Below, piece after piece: positions 10,580 through 63,905 of a DNA stretch of 64,000 bases. Made by a program: the position numbers and the translations under genes. Numbering within the stretch: position 1 is the first letter of the stretch; every line of letters begins with the position of its first letter. Origin of the DNA: Eledone cirrhosa (taxonomy: Eukaryota); the NCBI GenBank assembly GCA_964016885.1, contig OZ024757.1, forward strand, positions 5,766,001 to 5,830,000, read 5' to 3'. The notes under the pieces were generated by a model that saw only the letters and a program-made list of their open reading frames with translations, did no database searches and was not told where the DNA came from.

Positions 10580-10585
<6 letters not shown>
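10170..10585. mobile_element. Fold-back hammerhead-family insert: ~165-bp-arm palindrome (10254-10585) plus minus-strand 3' tail
   Basis: Near-perfect inverted repeat centred near 10419. Each arm carries a hammerhead 3' half (GAAA-CATATG-TA consensus, 10519-10530 and 10308-10319). Bulged hairpin on the minus strand at 10225-10251. Flanked by (TA)n. Confidence 0.75.
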
Positions 10586-11405: not shown

Positions 11406-11849
11406 AAAAAAAATTGTATGCAATCCCGCAGACCTTCCTTATAGTTTAGATTACAGGCAATAACAGAGTTTTAGTAGTAGATAGATAGATAGATATCTTT
11501 ATCTGCCACAGGGGCGCACACAAATGGGACATTACAAGACGTGACGGCGGGGATTTTACATAAAAATCATATAACTTTAACATTAATAAATAACAATAAA
11601 CTATATATAATAAAATAACAATTGAAATCCCCAATAAGGGGGGAACGTTACTACAGGGTTGTTTTACACCCCATGGATAGAACAACCCTCAACACCAGGA
11701 ACACGTTTTGTAGGTGTTCCCGTCTTCCCTCTGTTTATCTTCCTCAACCTACAGGTTTATATCACTCAGGACATTTTCGCCACATTCACTCATCTTTCAG
11801 CGAATTTACTGAGGTGAGATAGATAGACAGATAGATATATAGATAGATG

Positions 11850-14560: not shown

Positions 14561-15553
14561 CAATTCTGTGTTTGGGTGTGTACTTCCCCACCATCTGTTT
14601 ATGGGGGAGAATATACTGACCAATTACCACAAAGTGAGAAATAAATAATGACATAATCAAAATCTTGTAAATTCCATATTATGTGAGATAATTATGTGAG
14701 AAAAAGCCTTTACCATGAAAATATAATAGTAATGTAAATGCTAAAGGGTTAATGCTATCGTTAATATTAATTATCATTAGAAAATAAAATTACAGATCAA
14801 AGTTTATAAATTTAAAACTTCAAAAATCTAAATATTTAAACATTTCAAATTTCAAAAATTAAAAGTCAGAAACCCAGAAACTGTTGGACATCTCTAACAG
14901 TTGACGGAAATTTAACTATGAACCAACTTTCGACCAGATTAATGAGAGAACCAAAAGCAACGATAACCTCTTATTTTCCTGCAACACCTTTTATTTCACA
15001 CTAAACCCTAGAAAGAAGATCTCCTACTATGTCCCATTCTAGCTCACCTAACTATGGACAGCCAGAGAAGTCTATTTGTACCCTGCTGTGACTAGACTGA
15101 CCAAAACATCCAAAGCACTGAATATAACTGGACTCTTTATAATTTCTTTCCATTCGGACATTTTTCACATATTTTTTCCCCTTATTTTCTTTCACCTGTC
15201 ATTTTCATTAAGATGCCAATTTTTTTTCTAGTATGGAGTCATAACAAATTAATAGACTATTCCCTGCATTACTACCAACATTTAATATCCAATTTTGAAC
15301 CCAATTCCTATTTACCAATATACACAACAACCAGTTAGATATTATTCTTACTATATTCGACTAATATCTAAATTTCTAGATTTCTAATTTTTTATTTTTT
15401 AAATTAAAAATGTTTGATCTGTAATTTCACTTCCTAATGATAATTAATATTACCCATAGCTTTAAATTATATTCTCCCTTTGCGGTTATTGGTCGGTATA
15501 TTATCCCGCCATAAATGGGAGGTGGGGACACACACACCCAAACACAGAATTCT
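14561..15553. mobile_element. Fold-back/MITE-like element with long diverged terminal inverted repeats
   Basis: aattctgtgtttgggtgtgt..ccccacc..tttatgg.gg at 14561-14650 is the reverse complement of 15455-15553. aattacagatcaaa (14788) pairs with tttgatctgtaattt (15413). A piggyBac-MITE right end (gctaaaggg|ttaa, 14675-14752) lies inside the left arm. Confidence 0.65.
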
Positions 15554-16577: not shown

Positions 16578-16579
<2 letters not shown>

Positions 16580-18073
16580 TTGGTGCAGTAGCATCATTGT
16601 CAACTGCTACAAAGGTAAAGGCGATGCACTAGATAGAGGAAACTATAGAGGTATAAAGTTGATGGACCAGGTCATGAAAGTAACAGAAAGAGTTATAGCA
16701 CAGCTGATTAGGGACCGGGTGAATATAGACGAGATGCAATTTGGGTTTGTTCCAGGGAAAGGCACCACTGATGCGCTCTTCCTTGTGAGGCAATTACAGG
16801 AAAAGTACCTAGCTAAAAGTAAGCCACTCTACTTGGCATTTGTCGACCTTGAGAAAGCCTTTGACAGAGTTCCACGTGCAGTAATCTGGTGGGCTCTTAG
16901 AAAACTAGGAGTAGATGAATGGCTTGTGAAAGCGGTACAAGCCATGTATAGGGGAGCAGTCAGCAAAGTTAGGATTGGCAATGAGTATAGCGAGGAATTT
17001 AGCGTACAGGTTGGGGTCCACCAGGGCTCTGTTCTTAGCCCTCTCCTGTTCATCATAGTCCTGCAGGCAATAACGGAGGAGTTTAAGACCGGATGCCCAT
17101 GGGAACTCCTGTATGCTGATGACCTCGCACTCATAGCTGAATCTATGGTAGAACTAGAGAATAAATTCCAAACCTGGAAGCAGGGACTAGAGAGAAAGGG
17201 CCTCAAAGTCAACATGACAAAGACTAAGGTCCTTATAAGTAGACGAGAAAACAGAACCCAGATCCCCTCAGGGAAATGGCCTTGCTCAGTATGTAGGAAA
17301 GGTGTAGGTAGGAACTCCATTCTTTGCCCCAAATGCAAACAATGGGTACACAAGAGATGTAGCGGGATCTCAGGAAGCTTAATTAAGAATGTAGGATTCA
17401 CATGCAGCAGCTGTGCTGAAACAGCAAGCAAACAGCCACAGGAAACAAGTACCACCAATCTCTGGGAGGGCCCTGTAGAAACAGTAGACAGCTTCTGCTA
17501 CCTAGGTGACCGAATTAGCAACGGAGGTGGGTGCTCAGAAAGTACAATAACTAGGGTAAGAACGGGATGGAAGAAGTTTAGGGAACTACTACCACTGCTA
17601 GCTGCAAAAGGCTTCTCCCTCAGAATGAAAGGCAGACTGTATGATGCGTGTATCCGAACAGCGATGTTGCATGGTAGTGAGACCTGGGCGCTGAAGGTGG
17701 AAGATTACGTAGATTAGAGAGAAACGAAGCCTGCATGCTCCGATGGATGTGTAACAGTAATATACGTGAACGACAAAGCATAAATGAATTGAGAGAGAGA
17801 CTGAGCATAAGAGGAATCAAATGCTGCGTGCAGGAGAGGCGGTTACGCTGGTATGGACATGTGATGCGTATGAAGGATGACAGCTGCATAAAAAGGTGCA
17901 GAGCACTAGAAGTTGATGGAAACCGCGGAGTGGGGAGACCCAAGATGACTTGGGATGAGGTGATAAAAGCCGACCTTACCCAACTACACCTCTCAAAGTC
18001 AATGACACACGACCGTGACTTCTGGCGTCACGCAGTAATACAGGGTACCCGACCTCCCATGGGTACATGCTGA
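16578..18073 (+). pseudogene. LINE reverse transcriptase ORF (5'-truncated, one frameshift near 17705) with a PHD-like C4HC3 finger
   Basis: Motifs YKGKGDALDRGNYRGIKL, QFGFVPGKGTTDA, FVDLEKAFD, GVHQGSVLSP, LLYADD, FCYLG, LHGSETW. ORF 16659..17717 continues in 17735..18073 after a 1-bp loss. Confidence 0.93.
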
Positions 18074-24639: not shown

Positions 24640-24895
24640 AACATTAAATTAAGGGTGCCATAACATCTCTAAAATATGCTCAAAGATTCTAATGGATAGA
24701 TCCAAGCATTTATAAGCATTCAATTAAAAATCGATTGACATATATATATATAAAATAAACATATCAAACAATCACAGGGGATAACTTGTAAAGAGTGTAA
24801 GCACACATAGGTAGGTAGGGAACTAATTAAAATTTAACGAGAACTTCAAATATAGATACCTTTCAATAATGATTAATCTCCTATATACATATATA
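24640..24895 (-). mobile_element. 3' tail of a hammerhead-superfamily element (family shared with 57110-57385)
   Basis: Collinear with 57110-57360. Minus-strand bulged hairpin tgctt-ggat-..-atct-tt-gagca and terminus ggcacccttaa, as at 21575. Confidence 0.55.
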
Positions 24896-25109: not shown

Positions 25110-25462
<353 letters not shown>

Positions 25463-26905: not shown

Positions 26906-27040
26906 ATTTATACTTATATATACACTATATATAATTATAAACAGGAAAGGTCAGTAATTCATTACTACCTTATTACCAGTAAGAAAAATAGCTCGATGTA
27001 AATACATCAGATGTTTTACAGAGCTGGAATATAAATTACA

Positions 27041-27197
27041 GAGTGAAGATGATGTGGTCAGTATCAGTGGATGCGACAAAGATTATAAAGGAATAATATG
27101 TATTATTCTTTTATAATCTTTTATAATCTCTATAATTGTATTATTCTTTTATAATCTTTGTTGCATCCACTGATACTGACCACATCATCTTCACTCT
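27041..27197. repeat. Inverted repeat, ~55-bp arms
   Basis: gagtgaagatgatgtggtcagtatcagtggatgc pairs with gcatccactgatactgaccacatcatcttcactc. Lies about 100 bp upstream of the hammerhead at 27294. Confidence 0.9.
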
Positions 27198-27293
27198 TTA
27201 AATATGACACTGTTAATGACAACACTAACATCTACGTATCTTTACAATTGTTCTGTGGAATAGGAGGTTAATTATATTTCTAAACTTTGCTAG

Positions 27294-27340
27294 TGCTCCG
27301 ATGATTCCAAACGAAAGTTTGGAAGAAACGATTGTCAGCA
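27294..27340 (+). ncRNA. Minimal type I hammerhead ribozyme (U4C substitution)
   Basis: tgct-CCGATGA-ttccaaac-gaaa-gtttggaa-GAAA-cgattg-TC-agca. Perfect 8-bp stem II with a GNRA loop, near-palindromic loop III, GUC triplet. Confidence 0.8.
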
Positions 27341-27380
27341 ATACAATGTTTTGAACATAGTTTTGATTATTCTGTAATTG

Positions 27381-29679: not shown

Positions 29680-30485
29680 TTACATTTTGTTTCCAAGTTG
29701 TGCCTCCATGTCTGAAATTTATTCTCTAATTCTGTCATAGATTTGGCTAAGAGGGTCAGGTCATTGGCGTATAGAAGTTCCCAAGGGCAACCAGTCTTAA
29801 ATTCCTCTGTTATAGCCTGTAGGACAATAATGAAGAGGATACGGTAAAGGACGGAACACTGTTGAACCCCTACCTGTCAGCTGCATTCCTCCCTGTATTC
29901 ATTGTTGATTTTAACTTTGCTGGTGGCCACTTTGGAAATGGCCTGTACTGCTCTCACAAGCCACTCATCCATGCCTTGTTTTTTGAGGGCCCACCATATT
30001 ATGGGTTGAGGAACTCTGTCAGAAGCTTTCTCCAGGTCAACGAAAGCTAGGTTGAGTGACTTGCTTTTTGCCAACTACTTCTCCTGCATTTGCTTCGCAA
30101 GGAAGAGGGCATCGGTGGTGCTCCTTCCCGGCATAAATCCAAACTGCATTTCATCTAGTTATATACGATCTCTAATCAGTTGTGTGATGACCCTTTCTGT
30201 AACTTTCATGACCTGGTCAGTCAGCTTTATGCCTCTGTAGTTACGTCTCTCTAGGGCATGTCTTTTAACCTTGTAACAGTTGATGATGATGATGCTATTT
30301 CAATCACTGGGAATTATACCATTCTCTATTACTTTGTTCATAAAGAGGGTGGTTAGGTTGGGCCCTACTGCCCAAGATGCTTTCAACATCTCAGCTACGA
30401 CTCCCGATGCTTTATGCGTCTTCATCTCCTTAATTGTCTTACTTACGAGGTTGCTGATTATGTGTATAGTTGGTCCTTCTGTTGG
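29680..30485 (-). mobile_element. Degenerate RTE RT fragment (family B)
   Basis: Minus strand reads VVAEMLKAS..IIPSD; QFGFMPGRSTTDALFL; LAFVDLEKASDRVP; EEFKTGCPWELLYAND. Confidence 0.9.
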
Positions 30486-32463: not shown

Positions 32464-32479
32464 GTATATATATATATTA

Positions 32480-33076
32480 TGTCAGGTCACCAGTTGGTGC
32501 TACTGGTAACATGTATCCCAGTACAACCTGTCCCATGGTCGGGTCATTGGCGACTAAACTGGCAACCCCACCAAGGTTTCTTGGTGAGGAGGGTGACTTT
32601 GGACATCCTGCAGGACTAAAAACAAAACCTGTCAAAGGGCAAATAGCTATTAAAAGTCAATGGCCATCCAAAATCACTGGGAGAGATGACCCCTTAGCCC
32701 TTGTCAAGGCAGAATTCTAGGAGAAGGAAAACTCTGATATAACACCTGTAACCCTGATGGTATCCAATGATGTTGACTTGTTCTTCTTTTTGGTAAATAT
32801 CATCTTGGTTAAGAGAGTGGGACTGGCTCTGTGCAGTGCCTTTGCTCACTATAAAAGCTTCACGGCACAGGCATTGCTTTTATCTGGAGATCTCTCTGCA
32901 CTTGTCGTCACATGGTACCATGGGCCCAGCACTATGTGTCAATAATTGTCACAAGTGTAGTGTTTGTACCAGAGTTTTCAAGTCGCTGGCTGGACTAAAA
33001 AGTCACATTCGGTAGGGGTTCTCCTACATGGATATAAAGTAGTGGCCGTACTCGAAAACGAGTTGGCAGCCACCAT
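32480..33076. repeat. ~600-bp unclassified repeat (further copies at 39903-40498 and, partial, 44555-45021)
   Basis: Near-identical copies bounded by TA/TG runs. No recognisable ORF. May be a LINE 5' UTR. Confidence 0.75.
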
Positions 33077-33586
33077 GTATGTGTATATTTGTGTATATTA
33101 CATATATATATATATGTGTGTGGGTTTTAGCCTCTGTGTATGTGTGTGTGTATATTACATATATATATATATATATATGGGTTTTAGCCTGTGTATTGTG
33201 TATGTTACATATATATGTGTGTGTGTGTGTGTGTGTTTCAGTCTGTGTGTATTGTGTATATTACATATATATGTGTGTATGTTTCAGCCTCTCTCTGTAT
33301 TGTGTGTGTGTGTGTGTCTGTATGTGTGTGTGTGTGTGTGTGTGTGTATATAGTAACCACACATACAATGTACATATGTGTTTATCGTAATGTGTAAACT
33401 AGCTTGCGTGTACTTAAATAAACCCTCAGTTACATACACACATCAGTCGTTTGTATATGTATGTGTATATACACATATATATATATATATATATGTGTGT
33501 ATGTAAACATTTATACTTTTAATACATGAACATTTTACGCACTATTTATACATACCGATACAAAACTTTTAACACACACATACACA

Positions 33587-33634
<48 letters not shown>

Positions 33635-33645
33635 TATATATATAC

Positions 33646-33668
<23 letters not shown>

Positions 33669-33676
<8 letters not shown>

Positions 33677-33846
33677 ATTTTATAGAAGGAGCTTCTACAG
33701 GACTAGTACTGTTTCATTCAGATTTCATCTGAATGAAACAGTACTAGTCCTGTAGAAGCTCCTTCTATAAAATAAAAAAATTTTACTCTGCCATGTATTG
33801 AGTACCTTACTTACTGTGGTTATCCCCGACTCAACCCGGGACCTAC
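33669..33846 (+). mobile_element. Fold-back hammerhead-family insert (perfect ~55-bp arms, centre about 33725)
   Basis: Palindrome 33669-33781 whose apex is a stem II-like attcagat-ttc-atctgaat followed by GAAA-cagtactag-TC. Bulged hairpin at 33784-33804. Absent from the duplicate unit near 41000. Confidence 0.8.
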
Positions 33847-33884
<38 letters not shown>

Positions 33885-33898
33885 TATATATATATATA

Positions 33899-33946
<48 letters not shown>

Positions 33947-33966
33947 TATATATATATATATATATA

Positions 33967-34393
<427 letters not shown>

Positions 34394-34394
34394 T

Positions 34395-34483
<89 letters not shown>

Positions 34484-34497
34484 TATATATATATATA

Positions 34498-34566
<69 letters not shown>

Positions 34567-34931
34567 AGAATCTCCCTCTCATTTATATACCCTGACATAC
34601 TATTTGTATACTACTACCACCACTACTACTACTACTACTACATGACCTGGGGGCTACATAACTTTACACACACAACTGTCTGATACATATACAGTATAAT
34701 GGTGTATATATATATATTATATATATATATATTATATATATATATATTATATATATATATATATATTGGTTTATGTATATATATATACTTACATAAATAT
34801 TTATAGAGAAAATGACAGAAAATAGTAACCCTTAAAATACTACAATCTAGTGATAGTAGTAGTAATAGCAGTAGTAGTGGTAGTGGTGGTGGTAGTAGTA
34901 GTAGAAGTAGTAGTGTTGGTTGTAGTGGTGA

Positions 34932-35000
<69 letters not shown>

Positions 35001-35090
35001 AAATAGTAGTGTTGATGGTGGCAATAGTAGTAGTAGTAGTAGTAGTAGTAGTAGGTGTAGTAAAAGTAGTGTTGGTAGTAGTAGTGGTGA

Positions 35091-35126
<36 letters not shown>

Positions 35127-35184
35127 AAGTAGTATTGTTGGTTGTAATAGTAGTAGTGTTGGTAGTAGTAGTATCAATAATAGT

Positions 35185-37065
35185 AGTAGCAGTAGCAGTA
35201 ACCCCTTAACATGTTGTTGCCATAGTAATAGTAATACTATAGTAGTTGTAGTAGTAGCAGTAGCAGTAACCCCTTAACATGTTGTTGCCATAGTAATAGT
35301 AATACTATAGTAGTTGTAGTAGTAGCAGTAGCAGTAACCCCTTAACACGTTGTTGCCATAGTAATAGTAATACTATAGTAGTAGTAGTAGTAGTAGCAGT
35401 AACCCCTTAACACGTTGTTGCCATAGTAATAGTAATACTATAGTAGTTGTAGTAGTAGCAGTAGCAGTAACCCCTTAACACGTTGTTGCCATAGTAATAG
35501 TAATACTATAGTAGTTGTAGTAGTAGCAGTAGCAGTAACCCCTTAACACGTTGTTGCCATAGTAATAGTAATACTATAGTAGTTGTAGTAGTAGCAGTAG
35601 CAGTAACCCGTTAACACGTTGTTGCCATAGTAATAGTAATACTATAGTAGTTGTAGTAGTAGCAGTAGCAGTAACCCCTTAACACGTTGTTGCCATAGTA
35701 ATAGTAATACTATAGTAGTTGTAGTAGTAGCAGTAGCAGTAACCCCTTAACACGTTGTTGCCATAGTAATAGTAATACTATAGTAGTTGTAGTAGTAGCA
35801 GTAGCAGTAACCCCTTAACACGTTGTTGCCATAGCAATAGTAATACTATAGTAGTTGTAGTAGTAGCAGTAGCAGTAACCCCTTAACACGTTGTTGCCAT
35901 AGTAATAGTAATACTATAGTAGTTGTAGTAGTAGCAGTAGCAGTAACCCCTTAACACGTTGTTGCCATAGTAATAGTAATACTATAGTAGTTGTAGTAGT
36001 AGCAGTAGCAGTAACCCCTTAACACGTTGTTGCCATAGTAATAGTAATACTATAGTAGTTGTAGTAGTAGCAGTAGCAGTAACCCCTTAACACGTTGTTG
36101 CCATAGTAATAGTAATACTATAGTAGTTGTAGTAGTAGCAGTAGCAGTAACCCCTTAACACGTTGTTGCCATAGTAATAGTAATACTATAGTAGTTGTAG
36201 TAGTAGCAGTAGCAGTAACCCCTTAACACGTTGTTGCCATAGTAATAGTAATACTATAGTAGTTGTAGTAGTAGCAGTAACCCCTTAACACGTTGTTGCC
36301 ATAGTAATAGTAATACTATAGTAGTTGTAGTAGTAGCAGTAGCAGTAACCCCTTAACACGTTGTTGCCATAGTAATAGTAATACTATAGTAGTTGTAGTA
36401 GTAGCAGTAGCAGTAACCCCTTAACACGTTGTTGCCATAGTAATAGTAATACTATAGTAGTAGTAGCAGTAGCAGTAACAGTAACCCTTAACACGTTGTT
36501 GCCATAGCAATAGTAATACTATAGTAGTTGTAGTAGTAGCAGTAGCAGTAACCCCTTAACACGTTGTTGCCATAGTAATAGTAATACTATAGTAGTTGTA
36601 GTAGTAGCAGTAGCAGTAACCCCTTAACACGTTGTTGCCATAGTAATAGTAATACTATAGTAGTTGTAGCAGTAGCAGTAACCCCTTAACACGTTGTTGC
36701 CATAGTAATAGTAATACTATAGTAGTTGTAGTAGTAGCAGTAGCAGTAACCCCTTAACACGTTGTTGCCATAGTAATAGTAATACTATAGTAGTTGTAGT
36801 AGTAGCAGTAGCAGTAACCCCTTAACACGTTGTTGCCATAGTAATAGTAATACTATAGTAGTTGTAGTAGTAGCAGTAGCAGTAACCCGTTAACACGTTG
36901 TTGCCATAGTAATAGTAATACTATAGTAGTTGTAGTAGTAGCAGTAGCAGTAACCCCTTAACACGTTGTTGCCATAGTAATAGTAATACTATAGTAGTAG
37001 TAGTAGTAGCAGTAACCCCTTAACACGTTGTTGCCATAGTAATAGTAATACTATAGTAGTTGTAG
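35185..37065. repeat. 68-bp satellite, about 27 copies
   Basis: Unit cccttaacacgttgttgccatagtaatagtaatactatagtagttgtagtagtagcagtagcagtaac, embedded in (GTA)n. Confidence 0.97.
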
Positions 37066-37209
37066 TAGTAGTTGTAGTAGTAAGAGAACAAAAGGTTTGT
37101 TGTACAAACTTTTGTTCCATTTTTCTGTTGTTGTTGTTGTTGTTGTTTACAGTGACGGGGGGGAGGAGCTAAAAACAACAACATTATCTCTGTTGTTAGT
37201 AATATAATT

Positions 37210-37391
37210 GTTTCTACTTTAGGCACAAGGCCAGCAATTTTCCAGTGCATTACTGGTACTTTATTTTATCGACCCCGTAAGGATGAAAGGCAAAGTCAAC
37301 CTCGGCGGGATTTGAACTCAGATCGTAAAGGGACGTAACTATGCTGGAAAGCATGGCGTCCGACCCTCTACCGATACTGCCAATCCACCGC
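37210..37391 (-). mobile_element. Full-length tRNA-derived SINE with a 15-bp TSD (duplicate at about 42521-42702)
   Basis: A box tggcagtatcgg, B box gagttcaaatcc, conserved core. TSD gttagtaatataatt at 37195-37209 and 37392-37406. Confidence 0.92.
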
Positions 37392-37491
37392 GTTAGTAAT
37401 ATAATTATAATTATTTCTACCAGGCAGAAGGCCAAATATAGTTTACGATGTGGAGACGATAGGGGGAAGGGGGGGGGGGGACTCAGTCTAG

Positions 37492-37525
<34 letters not shown>

Positions 37526-39135
37526 GCTATTACTAACTACTATTACAACTATAATTACTACTACTATTACTACAACTACTATTACAACTATAATTACTAC
37601 AACAACTACTACTACTACTACTATTACAACTATAATTACTACTACTATTACTACAACTGCTATTACAACTATAATTACTACAACAACTACTACTACTACT
37701 GCTATTACTAACTACTATTACAACTATAATTACGACAACTACTACTACCACCACCAATATTGACGCTACGATGAAAGTCCAAATTAAACCGACCCCAATA
37801 GTAGACTGGTAGTTCATTTAATCCCACCGCTAGAAGTTTAAAAGTTGATCTGGGGACGTAAAGAGATTTTGCACGAATACCACAAGACACTTTCTGTTCG
37901 AAACTCTACCGATTCTGCCAACCCATTCTATTTTCTAACATAAGCATAAGGCAGGCCGCACATTTTAGAGGGACGGGTCGGGGTATACTGTGGTTTTTAA
38001 ACAAGATTCCCTCAGTATTTAACTGGTATCTGCTTTTTAAAGTTTGTATTTGACCAGAAGAGCTATTTCGATAAGGATAATAATTATACTACTACTACTA
38101 CTACTTCTACTACTACTACTAATGGTTTCTGATTTAGAGACAAGGCCAACAATTTTGATTAAATCAACCCAGTGCGTTACTGGTACTTTAGTTTATCGAC
38201 CCAGTAAAGATGAAAGGCAAAGTTTTGAACCCAAAACGTAAAGAACCGTTGATGATTTTCTACTTAAGACACAAGACCAGTAATTTGGGGAGAGGTGAAA
38301 GTCGATTAAATCGACACCAGTGCTTTATAAAAGTACTACTACTACTAATACTAGTTAATAGTTGTAAAAGTTTGTTTGTTTTTAACTTAGAGGCACAAGA
38401 CCACAAGTTCTTAAAGTTAGGATGGTCTGTTTTAGTTGGTTTTAAGTACCCCCTGACCAAGGCCACACTGTGGTGACATGAAGGGTGGGGTTGGCATATG
38501 AAACGTCTATTTATTAGTACCTGATTGGTACTTTTCTTTCCTTTATAGATCGACCCGGCGGGATCTGAACTAAGAACGTTGTGTCCATGACTAAATAAAG
38601 ACAAGTATATTGTCTGACGGGCGCTCTACCAGTTATGCCCCAATATTTCTGATATATATCTTTATCACAAGGACGTTGAATATGGACATCATACAAAAGA
38701 AAAATATAAAAAATTAAAAATAAATAACAAAATGTGAGGGAGCGAGAGTGGGGGGTGGGTGGTATATAGAAATCTTGTAGGGGAGGGGGGCACTAAAAAT
38801 AATCGATTCGAAGGATCAATTGATTAGATCAATCCTGGAAGTATGAAAGACAAAAGTTGATTTCACCGGTATTTGAACTGAAAAACGTAACGAGACAAAC
38901 AGAACAAACACTACAAGTTATTTTGTCCGACGCTCTAACGATTCTAATGATATATAATGACACAGACACAACACTTTGTAAGGGTCAATTTAATATATAT
39001 ATATAATTAAGTTTGTATGTACATATGTGTATATATATATATATATATGTAAATATAATTGAGTTTATATGTACATATGTGTATATATATATATACATAT
39101 GGGTATATATATATACATATAAATATACACATGGG

Positions 39136-39865: not shown

Positions 39866-40622
39866 TATATGTATGTATATATATACGTATATATATATAT
39901 TATGTCAGGTCACCAGTTGGTGCTACTGGTAACATGTATCCCAGTACAACCTGTCTCATGGTCGGGTCGTTGGCGACTAAACTGGCAACCCCACCAAGGA
40001 TTCTTGGTGAGGAGGGTGACTTTGGACATCCTGCAGGACTAAAAACAAAACCTGTCAAAGGGCAAATAGCTCTTAAAAGTCAATGGCCATCCAAAATCAC
40101 CGGGAGAGATGACCCCTTAGCCCTTGTCAAGGCAGAATTCTAGGAGAAGGAAAACTCTGATATAACACCTGCAACCCTGATGGTATCCAATGATGTTGAC
40201 TTGTTCTTCTTTTTGGTAAATATCATCTTGGTTAAGAGAGTGGGACTGGCTTTGTGCAGTGCCTTTGCTCACTATAAAAGCTTCACGGCACAGGCATTGC
40301 TTTTATCTGGAGATCTCTCTGCACTTGTCGTCACATGGTACCATGGGCCCAGCACTATGTGTCAATAATTGTCACAAGTGTAGTGTTTGTACCAGAGTTT
40401 TCAAGTCGCTGGCTGGACTAAAAAGTCACATTCGGTAGGGGTTCTCCTACATGGATATAAAGTAGTGGCCGTACTCGAAAACGAGTTGGCAGCCACCATG
40501 TATGTGTATATTTGTGTATATTACATATATATATATATGTGTGTGGGTTTTAGCCTCTGTGTATGTGTGTGTGTATTGTGTATATTACATATATATGTGT
40601 GTATGTTTCAGCCTCTCTCTGT

Positions 40623-40675
<53 letters not shown>

Positions 40676-40999
40676 ATATAGTTACCATACATACAATGTA
40701 CACATCTGTTTATCGTAATGTGTAAACTAGCTTGCGTGTACTTAAATAAACCCTCAGTTACATACACACATCAGTCGTTTGTATATGTATGTGTATATAC
40801 ACATGTATATATATATATATATGTGTGTATGTAAACATTTATACTTTTAATACATGAACATTTTACGCACTATTTATACATACCGATACAAAACTTTTAA
40901 CACACACATACACACTATATATATATATACACTATATATATATATATATATATATATACACTATATATATATATACACTATATATATATATATATACAC

Positions 41000-41035
<36 letters not shown>

Positions 41036-41449
41036 GAATCTCTCTCTCATTTATATACCCTGACATACTATTTGTATACTACTACCACCACTACTACTAC
41101 TACTACTACTACATGACCTGGGGGCTACATAACTTTACACACACAACTGTCTGATACATATACAGTATAATGGTGTATATATATATATTATATATATATA
41201 TATTATATATATATATATATATTGGTTTATGTATATATATATACTTACATAAATATTTATAGAGAAAATGACAGAAAATAGTAACCCTTAAAATACTACA
41301 ATCTAGTGATAGTAGTAGTAATAGCAGTAGTAGTAGTAGTGGTGGTTGTAGTAGTAGAAATAGTAGTGTTGATGGTGGTAATAGTAGTAGTAGTAGTAGT
41401 AGTAGGTGTAGTAAAGTAGTGTTGGTAGTAGTAGTATCAATAATAGTAG

Positions 41450-42385
41450 TAGCAGTAGCAGTAACCTCTTAACATGTTGTTGCCATAGTAATAGTAATAC
41501 TATAGTAGTTGTAGTAGTAGCAGTAGCAGTAACCCCTTAACACGTTGTTGCCATAGTAATAGTAATACTATAGTAGTTGTAGTAGTAGCAGTAGCAGTAA
41601 CCCCTTAACACGTTGTTGCCATAGTAATAGTAATACTATAGTAGTTGTAGTAGTAGCAGTAGCAGTAACCCCTTAACACGTTGTTGCCATAGCAATAGTA
41701 ATACTATAGTAGTTGTAGTAGTAGCAGTAGCAGTAACCCCTTAACACGTTGTTGCCATAGTAATAGTAATACTATAGTAGTTGTAGTAGTAGCAGTAGCA
41801 GTAACCCCTTAACACGTTGTTGCCATAGTAATAGTAATACTATAGTAGTTGTAGTAGTAGCAGTAGCAGTAACCCCTTAACACGTTGTTGCCATAGCAAT
41901 AGTAATACTATAGTAGTTGTAGTAGTAGCAGTAGCAGTAACCCCTTAACACGTTGTTGCCATAGTAATAGTAATACTATAGTAGTTGTAGTAGTAGCAGT
42001 AGCAGTAACCCCTTAACACGTTGTTGCCATAGTAATAGTAATACTATAGTAGTTGTAGTAGTAGCAGTAGCAGTAACCCCTTAACACGTTGTTGCCATAG
42101 CAATAGTAATACTATAGTAGTTGTAGTAGTAGCAGTAGCAGTAACCCCTTAACACGTTGTTGCCATAGTAATAGTAATACTATAGTAGTTGTAGTAGTAG
42201 CAGTAACCCCTTAACACGTTGTTGCCATAGCAATAGTAATACTATAGTAGTTGTAGTAGTAGCAGTAGCAGTAACCCCTTAACACGTTGTTGCCATAGTA
42301 ATAGTAATACTATAGTAGTAGTAGCAGTAGCAGTAACCCCTTAACACGTTGTTGCCATAGTAATAGTAATACTATAGTAGTTGTA
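41450..42385. repeat. 68-bp satellite, about 14 copies (duplicate unit)
   Basis: Same unit as 35185-37065. Confidence 0.97.
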
Positions 42386-42796
42386 GTAGTAAGAGAACAA
42401 AAGGTTTGTTGTACAAACTTTTGTTCCATTTTTCTGTTGTTGTTGTTGTTGTTGTTGTTTACAGTGACGGGGGGGGGGGCTAAAAACAACAACATTATCT
42501 CTGTTGTTAGTAATATAATTGTTTCTACTTTAGGCACAAGGCCAGCAATTTTACAGTGCATTACTGGTACTTTATTTTATCGACCCCGTAAGGATGAAAG
42601 GCAAAGTCAACCTCGGCGGGATTTGAACTCAGATCGTAAAGGGACGTAACTATGCTGGAAAGCATGGCGTCCGACCCTCTACCGATACTGCCAATCCACC
42701 GCGTTAGTAATATAATTATAATTATTTCTACCAGGCAGAAGGCCAAATATAGTTTACGATGTGGAGACGATAGGGGGAAAGGGGGGGGGACTCAGT

Positions 42797-42843
<47 letters not shown>

Positions 42844-44405
42844 GCTATTACTAACTACTATTACAACTATAATTACTACTACTATTACTACAACTACTAT
42901 TACAACTATAATTACTACAACAACTACTACTACTACTGCTATTACTAACTACTATTACAACTATAATTACGACAACTACTACTACCACCACCAATATTGA
43001 CCCTACAATGAAAGACCAAATTAAACCGACCCCAATAGTAGACTGGTAGTTCATTTAATCCCACCGCTAGAAGTTTAAAAGTTGATCTGGGCACGTAAAG
43101 AGATTTTGCACGAATACCACAAGACACTTTCTGTTCGAAACTCTACCGATTCTGCCAACCCATTCTATTTTCTAACATAAGCATAAGGCAGGCCGCACAT
43201 TTTAGAGGGACGGGTCGTGGTATACTGTGGTTTTTAAACAAGATTCCCTCAGTATTTAACTGGTATCTGCTTTTTAAAGTTTGTATTTGACCAGAAGAGC
43301 TATTTCGATAAGGATAATAATTATACTACTACTACTACTACTACTTCTACTACTACTACTAATGGTTTCTGATTTAGAGACAAGGCCAACAATTTTGATT
43401 AAATCAACCCAGTGCGTTACTGGTACTTTAGTTTATCGACCCAGTAAAGATGAAAGGCAAAGTTTTGAACCCAAAACGTAAAGAACCGTTGATGATTTTC
43501 TACTTAAGACACAAGACCAGTAATTTGGGGAGAGGTGAAAGTCGATTAAATCGACACCAGTGCTTTATAAAAGTACTACTACTACTAATACTAGTTAATA
43601 GTTGTAAAAGTTTGTTTGTTTTTAACTTAGAGGCACAAGACCACAAGTTCTTAAAGTTAGGATGGTCTGTTTTAGTTGGTTTTAAGTACCCCCTGACCAA
43701 GGCCACACTGTGGTGACATGAAGGGTGGGGTTGGCATATGAAACGTCTATTTATTAGTACCTGATTGGTACTTTTCTTTCCTTTATAGATCGACCCGGCG
43801 GGATCTGAACTAAGAACGTTGTGTCCATGACTAAATAAAGACAAGTATATTGTCTGACGGGCGCTCTACCAGTTATGCCCCAATATTTCTGATATATATC
43901 TTTATCACAAGGACGTTGAATATGGACATCATACAAAAGAAAAATATAAAAAATTAAAAATAAATAACAAAATGTGAGGGAGCGAGAGTGTGTGTGTGTG
44001 TGTGTGTGGGGGGGGGTTATATAGAAATCTTGTAGGGGAGGGGGGCACTAAAAATAATCGATTCGAAGGATCAATTGATTAGATCAATCCTGGAAGTATG
44101 AAAGACAAAAGTTGATTTCACCGGTATTTGAACTGAAAAACGTAACGAGACAAACAGAACAAACACTACAAGTTATTTTGTCCGACGCTCTAACGATTCT
44201 AATGATATATAATGACACAGACACAGCACTTTGTAAGGGTCGATTTAATATATATATATATAATTAAGTTTGTATGTACATATGTGTATATATATATATG
44301 TATACATATATATATATAATGTAAATATAATTGAGTTTATATGTACATATGTGTATATATATATATACATATGGGTATATATATATACAATTATATGTAT
44401 ATATA

Positions 44406-44528: not shown

Positions 44529-45299
44529 ATATATATGTATATATATATATAAAAGCAAAACCTGTCAAAGGGCAAAGGAGCTCTTAAGAGTCAATGGCCA
44601 TCCAAAATCACTGGGAGAGATGACCCCTTAGCCTTTGTCAAGGCAGAATTCTAGGAGAAGGAAAACTCTGATATAACACCTGCAACCCTGATGGTATCCA
44701 ATGATGTTGACTTGTTCTTCTTTTTGGTAAATATCATCTTGGTTAAGAGAGTGGGACTGGCTTTGTGCAGTGCCTTTGCTCACTATAAAAGCTTCACGGC
44801 ACAGGCATTGCTTTATATCTGGAGATCTCTCTGCACTTGCCGTCACATGGTACCATGGGCCCAGCACTATGTGTCAATAATTGTCACAAGTGTAGTGTTT
44901 GTACCAGAGTTTTCAAGTCGCTGGCTGGACTAAAAAGTCACATTCGTTCAGCGCATCGGTAGGGGTTCTCCTACATGGATATAAAGTAGTGGCCGTACTC
45001 GAAAACGAGTTGGCAGCCACCATATATATATATAAGTATATCGAACTAGACAAATTGAGTTTGTATGTACGATTCTTTGCTTAAACTTTAATCTGTACAT
45101 ATAATATATATATATATACATAGGTGTGTGTATATATGTATATATACGTGTGTTTATGTATGTATATATTTTAGACGGAAAACCTCAGTACAACTTGACT
45201 GGTAGTTATTTTATCGTAATAAAGTCGCCCCTGAGTAGAGATATTCAAACGACAGTAACAATAACCGTAAAGAATAGTATTATTGATGATAGTAAAAAT

Positions 45300-48211: not shown

Positions 48212-48217
<6 letters not shown>

Positions 48218-48651
48218 AACAAAAGATGGTTAAAAGAGTTCCATGTATTTTATTATGTGCATTTCAAAAACAAATATCATCATGCAATAATATTTGTGTT
48301 TTCATCAGATAAAACAGGAGGACATGATATGAAGGTTAAAAAACACTTGCGGATAGTGCAGTTTTAAATCAACATGATATGTTGATTTAAAACATGATAT
48401 GCTGAATTAAAACTGAACTATCCACAAGTGTTTTTTAACCTTCATATCATGTCCTCCTGTTTTATCTGATGAAAACACAAATATTATTGCATGGTGATAT
48501 TTGTTTTTGAAATGCGCATAATAATATACATGGAACTCTTTTAACCATCTTTTGTTCTTATATATTATGTATACTCCAGTCCTACAAACTGTAGAGTGCT
48601 TCTTATCCGATATCTGCATTGCTTTATTGTACTACAATAAAACTCACCTCC

Positions 48652-48655
<4 letters not shown>
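48212..48655. mobile_element. Fold-back insert with a complete hammerhead in each arm plus a 3' tail
   Basis: Inverted repeat 48212-48563 with ~160-bp arms. Tail has the bulged hairpin tactc-cagt-cctacaa-actg-ta-gagtg near 48572-48598. (TA)n on both sides. Confidence 0.85.
48460..48526 (+). ncRNA. Type I hammerhead ribozyme (canonical core); mirror copy on the minus strand at 48248-48314
   Basis: ttttat-CTGATGA-aaacacaaatatta-ttgcatgg-tgatatttgttttt-GAAA-tgcgca-TA-ataa. Long stem II, palindromic loop III (TGCGCA), AUA triplet. Confidence 0.85.
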
Positions 48656-48685
<30 letters not shown>

Positions 48686-48812
48686 AAAGTTTTATTTAAA
48701 TTGTTGGGATACAACAAGCAAATATGTTTATAACTGATATAAAGCACTAGACAAATATTTGGAGTAGATATACGATATTAATAAATGGAAACTATATTTA
48801 TAAAACCATATT

Positions 48813-48878
48813 TATTTCATTATATATATTTCAAGGATACCAAGTTAAATTTTGGTATGCCTTCATCAGACAAAATAC
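48813..48878 (-). ncRNA. Type I hammerhead ribozyme (canonical core) within insert 48682-48915
   Basis: Minus strand reads tattttgt-CTGATGA-aggcataccaa-aatttaac-ttggtatcctt-GAAA-tatata-TA-atgaaata. Downstream are a bulged hairpin, the ttgttg/caacaa terminal hairpin and (TA)n. Confidence 0.85.
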
Positions 48879-49402
48879 AATATATAACAGCTTTATAAAT
48901 AGACATTGACGTACCCCTTTTAAAAAATTGCCCGTTGCTTTTGGAGGCCATCAGGATAGTTTACTTTAGTAAGTCATAGTGTTAAGAGTAAGTAAAAAGA
49001 TGGAGAGAGAGAGAGAGAAACGTGGAGAAAAGAAAGGGAGAGATAGATAAAGAAAAAGAAGAAAGCAAAAAATAAAAGAGAACAGAGGAAAAATAACGGG
49101 GAAATATCAAACCATCAGACAGAGAAAGAACTCAAGAGAGAGATATATAGAGATAGAGAGAGGGGGGAGAGAACGAAAACCTTAAGTTATGTCATATTAA
49201 GTTGAGTTAACAATTGAGATGAAAAGCATAAATAAAATTAGAAATATTAATATTCATGAATGGAATATAGATATATAATATGAGAAATTACACATTGTTT
49301 AATTATGATTAGATATTTAGTTTAGAATTGAGATTAATATATTAAAAATTGGAATTTAAACATTATAAAATATATATATTGCTAGAGAGATTATCTATCG
49401 CA

Positions 49403-51529: not shown

Positions 51530-55800
<4,271 letters not shown>

Positions 55801-55801
<1 letters not shown>

Positions 55802-56225
55802 TATTGGTAAACGGAATAGAAAATGCTGACAAATTATTCACAGTTGAAAAATGGTTTAATTAGGAATAAAAGAGTATTAGTGATTGTATGGGTTAGTATT
55901 CAGTTGTGGTTTTAAGTTTTTAAGTTTTTACCGGTTGCGCATTCCTAAATGCTTTTCAAAAATAATTTTGAGATAGAGTGTCCGTGTTGTTTGCTCTGAT
56001 CAACACGGACACTCTATCTCAAAATTATTTTTGAAAAGCATTTAGAAATGCGCAACCGGTAAAAACTTAAAAACTTAAAACCACAACTGAATACTAACCC
56101 ATACAATCACTAATACTCTTTTATTCCTAATTAAACCATTTTTCAACTGAGAACAATTTGTCAGCATTTTCTATTCCGTTTACCAATATATAATAACTTG
56201 TGTGTTACACCTCTATTCTTTTAAC
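55801..56225. mobile_element. Fold-back insert (~185-bp arms, centre about 55993) with a hammerhead-like U3/A8 motif in each arm
   Basis: Palindrome 55801-56189. Motif ttt-TTGAAAA-gcattt/aaatgc-GCAA-ccgg-TA-aaa, where GCAA replaces GAAA. Confidence 0.7.
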
Positions 56226-56244
56226 TATATATATATATAATATA

Positions 56245-56508
56245 TAAGATCAAAAGATGGTTAAAAGAGTTCCATGTATTTTATTATGTACATTTCAAAA
56301 ACAAACATCATCATGCAATAATATTTGTGTTTTCATAAGATAAAATAGGAAGACATGATATGAAGGTTAAAAAACACTTGTGGATAGTGCAGTTTTAAAT
56401 CAACATATCTTATATATTATGTATACTCCAGTCCTACAAACTGTAGAGTGCTTCTTATCCGATATCTGCATTGCTTTATTGTACTACAATAAAACTCACC
56501 TCCTACAT
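56245..56508. mobile_element. Another copy of the 48212 family: inverted hammerhead arm joined directly to the 3' tail
   Basis: 56250-56405 matches 48218-48375 (core mutated to cttatga). 56408-56508 matches 48557-48655. Confidence 0.85.
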
Positions 56509-56529
56509 ATATATATATATATATATATA

Positions 56530-56872
56530 TTAGAAAGTGAGGTTTTTTTTACAAAATGAAAAATAACCGAGGTGTCCTACACGAGTGAAAGTATAAAGAA
56601 AAAAAGATGAAATCGAAAATGCAACTGGAGTCTTATTTAAAAAAATATATATATATTTATTTGGTTCCTTTACCGGTTTCGCAGTTCTTCTGCTTTTCAA
56701 AAGTAGAGTTGAGATGGAGGGTCTGTGGTTTTTCTCTTGTGAGGAAAACCACAGACCCTCCATCTCAACTCTAATTTTGAAAAGCGGGAAGAACTGCGAA
56801 ACCGGTAAAGGAACCAAATAAATATATATATTTTTTTAAAAATAAGACTCCAGTTGCATTTTTGATTTCATC

Positions 56873-56880
<8 letters not shown>
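56530..56880. mobile_element. Fold-back insert (~140-bp arms) with a minimal U3/A8 hammerhead in each arm
   Basis: Palindrome about 56592-56880. Minus strand 56668-56703 reads ctt-TTGAAAA-gcag-aagaa-ctgc-GAAA-ccgg-TA-aag. Plus-strand copy at 56775-56810. Confidence 0.8.
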
Positions 56881-57109: not shown

Positions 57110-57570
57110 CAAAATTAAAATTAAGGGTTGTCATGTCTGAGAGACATGCGCCATATCCACCGTAGAATAAGCTCAAAGATTAGATCCGAGCATTACATAT
57201 CAACTAGAAATAGATTGACATATATATATATATAATAAATACATGAAACAATCACAGGGTATAATTTGTAAAGAATGTAGGCACACATAGCTAGGTAGGT
57301 AACTAATTAAAGTTTAACTAGAACTTCAAATATAGATACCATTTAAAATGATTAATCTCCTTTGTATATATTTCTTTAAGTAAGAAATATATTTCACCTA
57401 TTAATCCGTAAATCACAGCAGTTAAATACTTGGATGTTCACCAAAGGAGAAGAAGATAACCATCTGCGTTTACACAGCAAATGCAAAACTGCGAATGATT
57501 TGGACCACGTGTTGCCACGGGGATGACGTGGTTCAACGAGTGTATTTTTAAAAACGGAATGAGGGGTACA
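57110..57570 (-). mobile_element. Hammerhead-superfamily tail element (family shared with 24640-24895)
   Basis: Minus-strand bulged hairpin gctc-ggat-cta-atct-tt-gagc at about 57170-57191. Possible decayed ribozyme ctcct-ttggtga...gaaatatata..aggag. Confidence 0.55.
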
Positions 57571-57608
57571 CACACACACATATATATATATGTGTATATA
57601 TACATACA

Positions 57609-57647
<39 letters not shown>

Positions 57648-57652
<5 letters not shown>

Positions 57653-57900
57653 ATATATTAATAAATGGAAACTATATTTATAAAACCATATATATTTTAT
57701 TATACATATTTCAAGGGCCACATTCTTTAGGATCTCTTCTTCTCTAAAAGACATTGTGGCCCTTGAAATATGTATAATAAAATAAATATAGTTTCCATTT
57801 ATTAATATATTGTGTAGTTACACCACTAAGTGTTGAGTGCTTTATATCAGTTATAAAAATGTTTAAGCTTGTTGAATCCCAACAAATTAAATATAACCTC

Positions 57901-57903
<3 letters not shown>
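57648..57903 (+). mobile_element. Fold-back version of the 48813/52521 family, folded at stem II
   Basis: Palindrome 57648-57815 with arms beginning gtggccctt-GAAA-tatgta-TA-ataaaata. The CTGATGA half is replaced by the inverted 3' half. Tail ttgagtgctttatatcag...ttgttgaatcccaacaa. Confidence 0.8.
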
Positions 57904-57955
<52 letters not shown>

Positions 57956-59284: not shown

Positions 59285-59940
59285 TATGATAATAATAATA
59301 ATTGTTATAAAATAAAAAGAACGATTTGTTGTCTTAAGTGGTCCCCAACATTTTCTGCTTCAAATTAACCCCTATTATATACAAATTGCAACGTATACCT
59401 TCCTGCCAGATGGTTGAACGTCCGAAAGTATATAATTTCCTTATGCATATTAACGGCTGAGTAGCCCAATTTGTATATCGGCAGGAAGATATACGTTGCT
59501 GACGATAGCTAACAAGCTTGAAACTAGTACAGCGTTCCTTTGTCAGTGTTGAACAAACGAGCAACGATGGTTGCTGGACACTACGGCTTAATTCGGGATG
59601 TTTGTTTACAAACACACTGAGCGTTGTAATGAATGTTTGGTGAATCCATACGTACATATATATATGTGTGCATGTATGTATATATACATACTACTGTACG
59701 TCTGTATACATATATGTATGTACGTATACATACTTATATTTAAGTTACAGCCGTACTAAGAGTGGGAAATGAAATTTCGTTTCATTTTTTTCGTTTATAT
59801 GTATATATGTGAAGTAATTCCGTCGGAAAAGTCCAGGAAAAAAGAGTGCTCTATGTAGGTAACAGAGCTTAATAGTTATGTAATAAATAACATAAGGCAA
59901 TTATTTCATTTACCAGTGGTTTCTTAAAAGCAAACAAATT

Positions 59941-61157: not shown

Positions 61158-61991
61158 GAGCTAATACCGCTGCTGGACACAAAAGGTTTCTCTAAAAATG
61201 AAAGGCAGGCTGTATGATGCGTGTATACGAACAGCAATGTTACATGGCAGTGAGACATGGGCATTGTGTGCAGAGGACCTGCACAGATTGGAAAGGAACG
61301 AAGCATGCATGCTCTGTTGGACGTGTAATTGTAATATACATGAACGGCAAAACATAAACAAACTAAGTGAGAATTAGGAATAAGAGGGATCAGATGCTGT
61401 TTACTTGAGAGAAGATTACATTGGTATGGTCATGTGATGCGCATGAAAGATGACATCTTAAAAAAAAAGTGCAGGGATATCAAAATTGATGGAAGTTATG
61501 GAGTAGGTAGACCCAGAAAAACCTGGGATGATATAAAATCCAACCTTGCACACTTACACCTCTCTTAGACAATGTCACTGGATTGAGATCTATGGCACCA
61601 CACAGTAACAGAGAAGACCTGCCTTCCCTACGTGCAAAGTTAACCTACAGTCAGTAGGCCCCTCCTAACCAAATATACACCCCAACCCACACACCCTACT
61701 GCATCCTCCCACTCACACCAACACCACCCTGTCTCTGTAAAGCTATGTTGGTACCACAACATCCAGTCCAAACTAAAGAGGTAGTGTAGGTGTCATCACG
61801 AAAAGACTCCCAGTCCACACTGGAAATGTGGTTGGTGTTAGGAAGGGCATCCAGCCTTAGAAAACCTGCCAGATACAGTCCTATACGAGCGAGACACGGT
61901 CACCTGATCAATCCTGCCTCAAGTGGGACAATTCCCGTCTAACCCATGCTAGCGTGGAAGATAGACGTTAAATGATAATGATGATGATGAT
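61158..61991 (+). mobile_element. RTE LINE 3' fragment (family B) with (GAT)n tail
   Basis: MKGRLYDACIRTAMLHGSETWAL..LERNEACML. Similar to 3810-4290 and 17590-18370. Confidence 0.9.
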
Positions 61992-62950: not shown

Positions 62951-63159
62951 TATTTTCGTTGTTTGATTCGTTTTTTCTTTTTTTTTCCATTACGTAAATA
63001 TTTTATTACCTTTAATAATGTGTTTTGGTTTAATATGAACAGTTATATAACATTAATAACGTTATTTATTCAAATCTGAATAAAGTACTAGCATATCTAT
63101 TGAACGTATGAATCTAAACTATAATAAAAGAAGGAGCGCGGGACTGCGTACAGTTTCTA

Positions 63160-63905
63160 ATTGTTTATCCCATTAATAAAATAAGTTAGATTACTTTGAA
63201 TAAATAATGAATGACTATTACATAATTTATCTACTAAATTTCGGGGCTGTTGATTAAATATATTTTGTTTGTTTAAAAATTCACTTCTTTAAAATTTCTG
63301 AAATGCCAACACTTCCGGTTGGTCATCACTTCAATAAACTATTAATTTTCTGTCACTAATTTTCTCCTAATGCAGTTTATATATAATATCGTCTTTTTTA
63401 ATGTATCATGGATTACGTTACTGATTACATAAGACAGTGTAACACAGTCTTCGTTCAATTTCTGTGTATTATATATTGTCAAGGCGGTGGATTGGCAGTC
63501 TTGGTAGAGCGTCGGACGCCATGCTTTGACGCATAGAGTTACGGCCCTTGTCATTCTGAGTTCAAATCCCGCCGAGGTTAACTTTGCCTTTCATCCTTAC
63601 GGGGTCGATAAAATAAAGTACCAGTAATACACTGGATAAATTACTGGCCTTGTGCCTAACGTTGAAACAATTATATATTGTAAATTACGATTTTATTTGA
63701 TGTATCATATCTACATGTATATATATATACTTGCGTATAATATCAATATACACACTACACATGCTAGCTGAAAACCACCCGAAGGTAGCATGTGTAGTGT
63801 GTATATTGATATTACACGCAGGTATATATACATGTATCATATATACCTGCGTATAATATCAATATACACACTACACACGCTACCTTCGGGTGGTTTTCTG
63901 GTAGT
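63160..63905. repeat. Dispersed repeat (paralogue of 10970-11405) with a fold-back-duplicated end
   Basis: 63774-63904 is a palindrome (aaaaccacccgaaggtagc...gctaccttcgggtggtttt), and 63720-63775 also pairs with 63786-63835. Confidence 0.8.
63483..63670 (+). mobile_element. tRNA-derived SINE nested in the 63160-63905 repeat
   Basis: TSD ttatatattgt(c/a)aa. The empty site is visible in the paralogue at 11085-11105. Confidence 0.92.

Follow-up and report, generated by a model that had tools for sequence, protein, structure and literature searches.

Penelope-like elements (PLEs) carry an inverted truncated copy and a 30-40-bp tail at one end and insert into (TA)n targets (PMC8557442), and the same traits have been listed for curators (PMC8969392); these and the following sources are cited from excerpts. 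In Adineta vaga, Penelope elements have inverted pLTRs, one of which optionally bears a 31-bp tail, and palindromes of 18 and 38 bp are present at pLTR 5' ends, from which self-priming on an antisense template was inferred in 2013 (PMC3846280). The tail on a single arm has been ascribed to resolution of a self-primed hairpin by the endonuclease (PMC8557442). The hammerheads of PLEs have a long stem II, a tiny palindromic stem III, and a U3-A8 variant, and they form pairs on opposite strands 100-700 bp apart (PMC4209133). Penelope elements and hammerheads have been noted in the giant squid (PMC6962438), and short non-coding hammerhead repeats have been tied to PLE pLTRs in a retrozyme preprint (bioRxiv 10.64898/2026.07.22.740005). 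The Penelope protein of Anolis cuts and extends both DNA strands, prefers AT-rich DNA, is predicted to form a dimer, and uses an uncleaved RNA containing two internal start sites that bound the tail (PMC11167929). The excerpts of the latter report leave later integration steps open and do not address inverted insertions, and formation of inverted ends in PLEs is still called open in the excerpts of PMC8557442 and PMC11167929. Head-to-head layout, one-sided tail, junction palindromes, and self-priming are therefore known features of PLEs. In the literature covered (titles, beginnings of abstracts, and portions of texts, excluding subscription papers and supplements), we found neither a mapping of PLE junctions onto the ribozyme nor a twin-priming proposal for PLEs.

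The DNA analyzed here, referred to as the window, is an AT-rich stretch of 64,000 nucleotides, of which 26,395 bases were masked as tandem repeats. The palindrome located at positions 57649-57903, designated A3, is bordered by (TA)n microsatellites on either side (57580-57648 on the left and, as (AT)n, 57904-57951 on the right). Its inverted arm (57649-57722), in which the element is read on the minus strand, has its outer end 49 nt after the G of GAAA, a position designated site X, and its inner end 6-10 nt before GAAA. The direct arm (57755-57814, plus strand) contains, in this order, the end of the 3' strand of stem II, GAAA at 57765-57768, a 2-bp stem III, and the 3' strand of stem I, so that A3 carries the 3' half of the hammerhead only; hammerhead numbering predicts a cut after 57776. 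An 89-nt tail (57815-57903, plus strand), whose outer end defines site Y, is confined to the right arm and missing from the left. Sixty-seven of the 68 aligned bases of the two arms are identical, the right arm lacking 14 nt present in the left, and the inverted arm is likewise identical at 67/68 positions to the corresponding arm of a sister copy (52561-52628). The longest perfect arm is 30 nt, versus at most 14 nt in 30/30 resampled windows, and the fold z-score of -10.3 was matched by 0/200 shuffles. A3 is thus a genuine but imperfect DNA palindrome. A preliminary description of this DNA had called it perfect, which is contradicted by the 14-nt deletion of the right arm and by 32 unmatched nucleotides at the centre (57723-57754). 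It had also proposed that the CTGATGA half was replaced by an inverted copy of everything located 3' of stem II. The loss of CTGATGA was borne out, but not the "everything", since the left arm ends at site X and the tail was left uncopied.

The centre of A3 is unpaired except for a weak gapped extension, and it does not resemble native stem II loops. No source for it was found in the window, where the longest matches are 11, 10, and 8 nt, lengths reached by 491, 176, and 540 of 1000 shuffles, respectively. Because shuffles reach such lengths often, an 8-nt likeness of the centre to the region upstream of family A was discarded as chance-level (540/1000). A Penelope-type element likely gave rise to A3 by copying its ribozyme-like end, from each side of a cut, into a TA repeat.

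The family to which A3 belongs is present in three states, in agreement with the preliminary description. A1 (48683-48916, minus strand) is a linear copy that has a tail and whose type I hammerhead-like motif (core at 48869) is complete; (TA)n is present on the tail side only. In A2 (52361-52628, plus strand), an inverted tail arm beginning at the Y end is joined without overlap to an arm that contains the whole type I hammerhead-like motif (core at 52529) and ends at X. A3, the palindrome without the CTGATGA half, is the third state.

Self-comparison of the window and arm alignment identified ten head-to-head events from seven hammerhead-like families in (TA)n. Eight are palindromes (A3, B1, B2, C, D, E, F, and H1), and two are non-overlapping inversions (A2 and H2), which were kept among the ten but not among the palindromes. 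Also excluded from the latter were C2, a duplicate of C1, and the palindromes at 27036, 25121, 63719-63904, and 51717, in which no hammerhead-like motif was recognised. All ten events combine one short arm ending at X with one tailed arm ending at Y; tails are 39-96 nt in the eight palindromes, which exceeds the published 30-40 bp. TA-rich flanks were found on both sides of 11 of the 12 listed loci, those of B2 being weaker, the exception being A1. Site X, located 39-134 nt after GAAA across families, is shared by independent copies within each of families A, B, and H; the X and Y sites of C, D, E, and F were each defined after the fact from single events. Inner arm ends are symmetric in 7/8 palindromes, and loops are 1-11 nt in six.

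B1 (33671-33847, plus strand) is a perfect palindrome (55/55, 3-nt loop) with an apex 10 nt before GAAA and a 68-nt tail. It is missing from a paralogous site (40916-41035), which contains only a 120-nt microsatellite and none of the 14-mers of B1. The nearest long block compared around this site differs at 7 of 597 bases, and a difference at 47/91 positions in the flank is an offset resulting from one CA unit. Absence of B1 from this site implies that palindrome and tail were inserted as a unit, and recently, unless they were precisely lost. The window contains a tandem segmental duplication (32478-38992 and 39906-44247, 95-99% alike, with a third partial copy at 44552-45026), and B1 is present in the first copy only. 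B2 (5549-5709, plus strand) is a head-to-head insert that kept its core (5648), with a junction at stem I, 25 nt before GAAA, and a 61-nt tail on the left arm. An additional family B tail fragment (5432-5480) lies tail to tail with B2 across a microsatellite.

C1 (18953-19152, plus strand) has an apex 20 nt before GAAA and an 82-nt tail. Its duplicate C2 (20589-20788) differs at 2 of 200 bases, and the flanks of 50 and 70 nt are identical, indicating a single event. The preliminary description had listed these two inserts, together with B1, as palindromes with a stem II-like apex; the arms match at 59/62 positions in C1 and 61/62 in C2, with a 1-nt loop in both. In D (10178-10581, plus strand; arms 157/162), the 3' half is hammerhead-like, the 5' core is non-canonical, the left arm carries an 81-nt tail, and the apex lies 99 nt before the GAAA equivalent, as anticipated from an earlier estimate of about 100 nt. 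E (55805-56225, plus strand; arms 189/192) has its apex 57 nt before GAAA, a 39-nt tail, and a U3-A8-type motif in each arm. Family F is a diverged relative of E (72%), represented by a palindrome (56531-56876, plus strand; arms 134/144) with an apex 59 nt before GAAA and a 71-nt tail on the left arm. H1 (48216-48654, plus strand; arms 167/174) has its apex 122 nt before GAAA, a 96-nt tail, and a complete motif in each arm (48308 on the minus strand and 48466 on the plus strand). Its centre contains a relic of a 14-nt local snap-back, after which the sequence switches to a second copy that has 2 differences in about 21 sites. In H2 (56247-56506, minus strand), an X arm is joined without overlap to the tail, the X and Y ends being those of H1. 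The tails of H1 and H2 are identical (0/96 differences), and the arms differ at 6-11 of 156 positions (4-7%). This contrast, assessed after the fact (P = 0.046 for 7/156 and 0.008 for 11/156), fits either mixed templates or fast-mutating arms.

A hammerhead descriptor applied at three stringencies returned 4, 5, and 7 matches in the window, compared with null means of 0.1, 0.15, and 1.0 in 40 resamplings. All matches except one at 59499 lie within the elements described above; the scan, whose stem I rule was stricter, overlooked the motif of A2. The exception belongs to a solo compact hammerhead-like motif (59490-59545) with a palindromic stem III, next to which no inverted arm was seen. In Rfam, the best 150 of 323 matches for the window included no hammerhead family, and neither did the 16 and 4 matches for two small stretches. 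The motifs of A1, A2, E, and H1 are designated here as hammerhead-like, and self-cleavage, probably as a dimer, is putative. They share a long stem II, a short stem I, a palindromic stem III, and U3-A8 with the minimal type I hammerheads of metazoan PLE pLTRs, and the pairs on opposite strands described for these hammerheads are found here at 48308/48466 and 55959/56031 (PMC4209133). The excerpts of that study contain no mapping of inversion junctions, which were mapped here for the window.

Further comparisons support the Penelope-type origin that the preliminary description had assigned to the inserts. Of the features of an end fragment of an endonuclease-positive (EN+) PLE, a hammerhead motif, an inverted 5'-truncated copy, a one-sided tail, and a (TA)n target were found. 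With Pen2a, Pen2, and Pen3a of Adineta vaga, the inserts share head-to-head arms, a tail on one arm, a palindrome at the junction, and AT-rich targets, although tails are 39-96 nt here and about 31 nt in A. vaga (PMC3846280). Unlike the A. vaga elements, the inserts have no ORF between the arms, so that the whole insert spans only 160-440 nt and the junction is in or near the ribozyme. With Poseidon PAc of Anolis carolinensis (PMC11167929), they share two fixed ends downstream of the hammerhead, a tail between these ends, and an AT-rich target, and they extend upstream of the cut site, as would follow from use of an uncleaved RNA. In PAc, stem II marks the start of an ORF; the equivalent frame closes within 15 codons in A1 and A2. 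The Neptune and Naiad clades share (TA)n targeting, the inverted 5'-truncated copy, and a tail at one end, but Naiads are devoid of canonical hammerheads, unlike the elements of the window, and clade assignment needs a protein (PMC8557442). No ORF, and so none combining reverse transcriptase and GIY-YIG, was found in the inserts, and the window yielded no gene for a Penelope protein. Absence of an ORF would be expected for truncated copies, and the inserts appear Penelope-like by structure, their link to a PLE protein being presumptive. A 32-nt family motif had 0 loci in metagenome contigs and 0 in viral contigs.

Two decayed copies of another sequence (57110-57371 and 24657-24892, 75% alike) contain a CxxC followed by an HTxxG that by eye resembles a GIY-YIG endonuclease. 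The candidate remnants (57237-57341 and 24760-24860) were rejected, with no Pfam family in 6/6 frames and no homology result. Animal non-LTR retrozymes likewise consist of short repeats that are non-coding, bear type I hammerheads, and are linked to PLE pLTRs, but they are head-to-tail tandems with at least two ribozymes (bioRxiv 10.64898/2026.07.22.740005), whereas the elements of the window are solo or head-to-head. Assignment to retrozymes was discarded, as self-comparison of the window revealed no direct tandem of any family.

Public sequencing reads were searched with the A3 stretch. Of eight runs listed, five contained part of the stretch, the best share being 0.60 of 20 sampled words; shares were small in runs X1 (0.25) and X5 (0.20). 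Four runs were then aligned at 85% likeness to the sister copy A2, and the following data refer to that copy and not to the A3 locus. Matching data consisted of 6,862 and 13 contigs in two cases and of 31,411/12.47 million and 33,575/12.79 million reads in the others, family A thus representing about 0.25% of the reads in two runs. In run X2, 97 contigs ran into (TA)n at site X and 31 at site Y, and 5162 reads in run X6 and 5932 in run X7 ran into (TA)n near X. Twelve of the best 15 of 74 read joints connected X to the tail as in the linear copy, the dominant form in reads; one connected the tail to stem II, and two were strand changes with a single start (52587/52598 and 52624/52626). No strand change at stem II was present among these best 15 of 74 joints. 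Contig joints from the tail (best 12 of 36) landed at 52456, 52512, 52563, 52587, 52599, and 52605, only one of the six being in stem II: the joint at 52563, found in run X2 at a depth of 675, falls in the stem II loop, and it is the only one for which the strand was given. In one contig of run X1, the junction with an inverted arm lies about 40 nt upstream of the core. Loose ends before 52562-52567 (best 23 of 457) match native stem II, for which RAD enzymes probably select. Counts of RAD reads were rejected as a gauge of stem II intactness, since read ends at CATG and AATT point to enzyme sites and CATG occurs in a stem II variant, so that intact copies are selected.

The tails of otherwise unalignable families A to D are connected by the motif TTGAGTRC. 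All eight occurrences in the window are in these tails (5435, 5585, 10224, 19097, 20733, 33798, 52422, and, in A3, 57833), compared with a mean of 2.3 and a maximum of 7 in 200 nulls; variants are present at 48592, 56444, and 48744. The region may form a 5-bp hairpin with a UUGAG loop, in which 80% of 45 cells are paired, a value reached by 12/500 shuffles, and a single pair changes on both sides. As a weak lead, the motif is a candidate protein-binding signal.

L1 retrotransposons generate inverted segments by twin priming, in which the other DNA end primes a second time. Of the two L1 priming sites, one is poly(A) and the other is internal, variable in position, and located through base pairing. 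In the inserts of the window, both sites look fixed, and overlap of the copies into palindromes is common. A reading to which we give about an even chance is that a Penelope-type reverse transcriptase/endonuclease used the two sides of one cut to prime cDNA synthesis and connected the copies via a short local hairpin. The arms, the one-sided tail, the (TA)n flanks, the recurring X and Y sites, and the scattered apexes are observed; the steps that follow are conjectural. An enzyme encoded elsewhere would cut both strands in (TA)n. One DNA end would then prime at the internal RNA site Y, at the end of the tail, and the other at X, and extension of both cDNAs toward the 5' end of the uncleaved RNA would end prematurely, in some cases within stem II. 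Since the two cDNAs have the same polarity, they could pair solely via an inverted repeat, and a snap-back of a few bases or cDNA-cDNA pairing would seal the junction at whichever hairpin is available. The linear copy (48683) would then reflect priming from one side, the inverted-tail copies (52361 and 56247) cDNAs that do not overlap, and the palindromes cDNAs that do.

Several observations favour two-site priming: the X/tail asymmetry and TA-rich flanks of 10/10 events, the recurrence of X, the contig and read ends at X and Y in the public data aligned to A2, the 2/10 non-overlapping events, the 14 nt unique to the left arm of A3, the snap-back and template switch of H1, the scatter of the tail joints (1/6 in stem II, best 12 of 36), and the absence of B1 from the paralogous site. 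By analogy, the Anolis protein, which cuts two strands and uses two start sites (PMC11167929), would also be in line with it. Against it stand the symmetric inner ends (7/8) and the 1-11-nt loops in six palindromes, for which pure fold-back is the simplest explanation, as well as the lack of a Penelope protein gene in the window and of an Rfam hammerhead match among the best 150 of 323. The combination of a short and a tailed arm is also expected from endonuclease resolution of a self-primed hairpin (PMC8557442), and the 14-nt deletion, the inner repeat of H1, and the non-overlapping copies could result from later damage to unstable palindromes.

A more specific version is tentatively advanced, with a clearly smaller chance of being correct: integration may be ordered, a protein dimer priming one DNA end at X and the other at Y, never one site twice, with a few-base snap-back bridging the cDNAs, the tail hairpin with its UUGAG loop acting as recognition signal, and stem II being a stall hot spot in some families. 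If true, the ordered X/Y rule would yield linear, inverted-tail, and palindromic copies alike, and it would tie the two start sites observed in vitro to the unexplained head-to-head layout. The inserts are a good test bed for inverted-end formation: they are short and abundant and place start sites, ribozyme, and junction in one read, so that rival models are separable from a single genome.

The best-surviving alternative, somewhat doubtful in our opinion, is that a single cDNA self-primed on any small 3' hairpin, the endonuclease resolving the product and leaving one arm without a tail, and that non-overlapping copies are later deletions. It has already been proposed (PMC3846280, with the tail explained by endonuclease resolution in PMC8557442), and it accounts for the symmetric inner ends and short loops, for the identity of the B1 arms (55/55), and for the snap-back relics at H1 and B2. 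However, the ends of the Anolis tail were later shown to be start sites of reverse transcription (PMC11167929), and A2 and the contig joints (best 12 of 36) have no overlap. The junction of H2 continues the natural sequence and not that of H1, indicating that H2 is not a simple deletion of H1. Fold-back as the sole cause, as in the preliminary description, leaves the non-overlapping inversions at 52361 and 56247 unexplained.

The preliminary description had placed the event specifically at stem II of the hammerhead, where the minus-strand cDNA would snap back. This is improbable. Relative to the G of GAAA, the apex is at -10 in B1, -20 in C, and -26 in A3, which have lost the core (the value for A3 was computed with an inner end at 57724, the exact end at 57722 shifting the apex by 1 nt), and at -25 in B2, which kept the core, -57 in E, -59 in F, -99 in D, and -122 in H1. 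The apex is thus inside the stem II interval in 3/8 palindromes and elsewhere in 5/8; the binomial P value ranged from 0.021, under the most favourable of nine assumed nulls, to 0.363, with a middle value of 0.105. These three apexes were those picked initially, and the palindromes at 5549, 48216, 55805, and 56531, which had not been weighed, retained a core of the CTGATGA type, with folds located 25-122 nt upstream of GAAA. Any apex located a few bases before GAAA is stem II-like by construction. Native loops were compared for A3 and B1, C having no intact sister, and the native loop or register was retained at the apex in neither. In A3, identity to A2 stops 6 nt before GAAA (22/49 ungapped), and the centre is unlike the native loops of A1, A2, and the read consensus. 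In B1, the apex is a 3-bp GAT/ATC hairpin overlapping positions G8-A9 of the core of its sister, and the direct arm retains G8-A9 and the next bases, which places the apex off the stem II register, although this is not certain because the sister, B2, is diverged. E and F fold at one homologous place 57-59 nt upstream of GAAA, three arm ends of family H lie within a few bases, and H1 and H2 share an apex about 120 nt upstream. The read joints bear on both sides, with one deep X2 contig joint in the stem II loop and no strand change there among the best 15 of 74. Some role for hairpin pairing at the junction, as had been suggested, is supported, but specificity for stem II was not upheld: stem II appears to be one possible junction and a minority outcome in this window.

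A still less probable view is that host repair, through hairpin nicking, resection, and filler synthesis, created or remodelled the palindromes or their centres once the element had inserted, in which case the apex would carry little information on transposition. The lack of a source for the A3 centre in the window is in keeping with such reshaping, as is the divergence of the H arms (6-11/156) relative to the tails (0/96), since palindromic arms could mutate fast. The fixed X and Y ends and the one-sided tail are left unexplained, and B1, although young, has a clean 3-nt loop.

A fold-back artefact of reads or assembly could be suspected from the perfect arms of B1, the nearly identical arms of C2 (61/62), and the lack of direct recovery of A3 from reads (best share 0.60), but it is very unlikely given that, as previously argued from diverged arms, substitutions and indels separate the two arms in each of A3, B2, C1, D, E, F, and H1, that each short arm stops at a microsatellite boundary, at a site recurrent in three families, and that an inverted arm is present in a contig of run X1. 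Non-autonomous DNA transposons (MITEs) also have long inverted repeats within TA-rich targets, but this origin is largely refuted, and hence equally remote, in view of the unequal arms, the linear or differently inverted sisters with varying inner junctions (three layouts in family A), the enrichment in hammerhead-like motifs, and the dominance of the linear X-to-tail form in reads.

For annotation, such palindromes are confusable with MITEs and score as false microRNA hairpins (33683-33769). Other repeats were observed in the window. A TA-flanked sequence (26934-27380) contains an internal palindrome (27036-27201) and a tail-like motif (27290), with no recognised hammerhead. A 440-nt element is present in four copies that are 95-99% alike (51676-52116, 53494-53925, 54764-55206, and 55310-55743), one of them inverted and each with a small internal palindrome. 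Another family (5073-5290, 10992-11452, and 63111-63904) is split by a SINE-like repeat and has a double-inverted end (63719-63904). Inverted-repeat pairs with long spacers (14562-15551 and 25121-25455) are possibly remains of DNA transposons. LINE remains were identified by an RVT_1 match (E = 1.6e-32, 16578-17714) within a LINE-type reverse transcriptase frame of 379 aa (16578-18073), in which a PHD finger follows the reverse transcriptase; decayed relatives of this frame are located at 3353-4176, 29685-30291, and 61158-61628.
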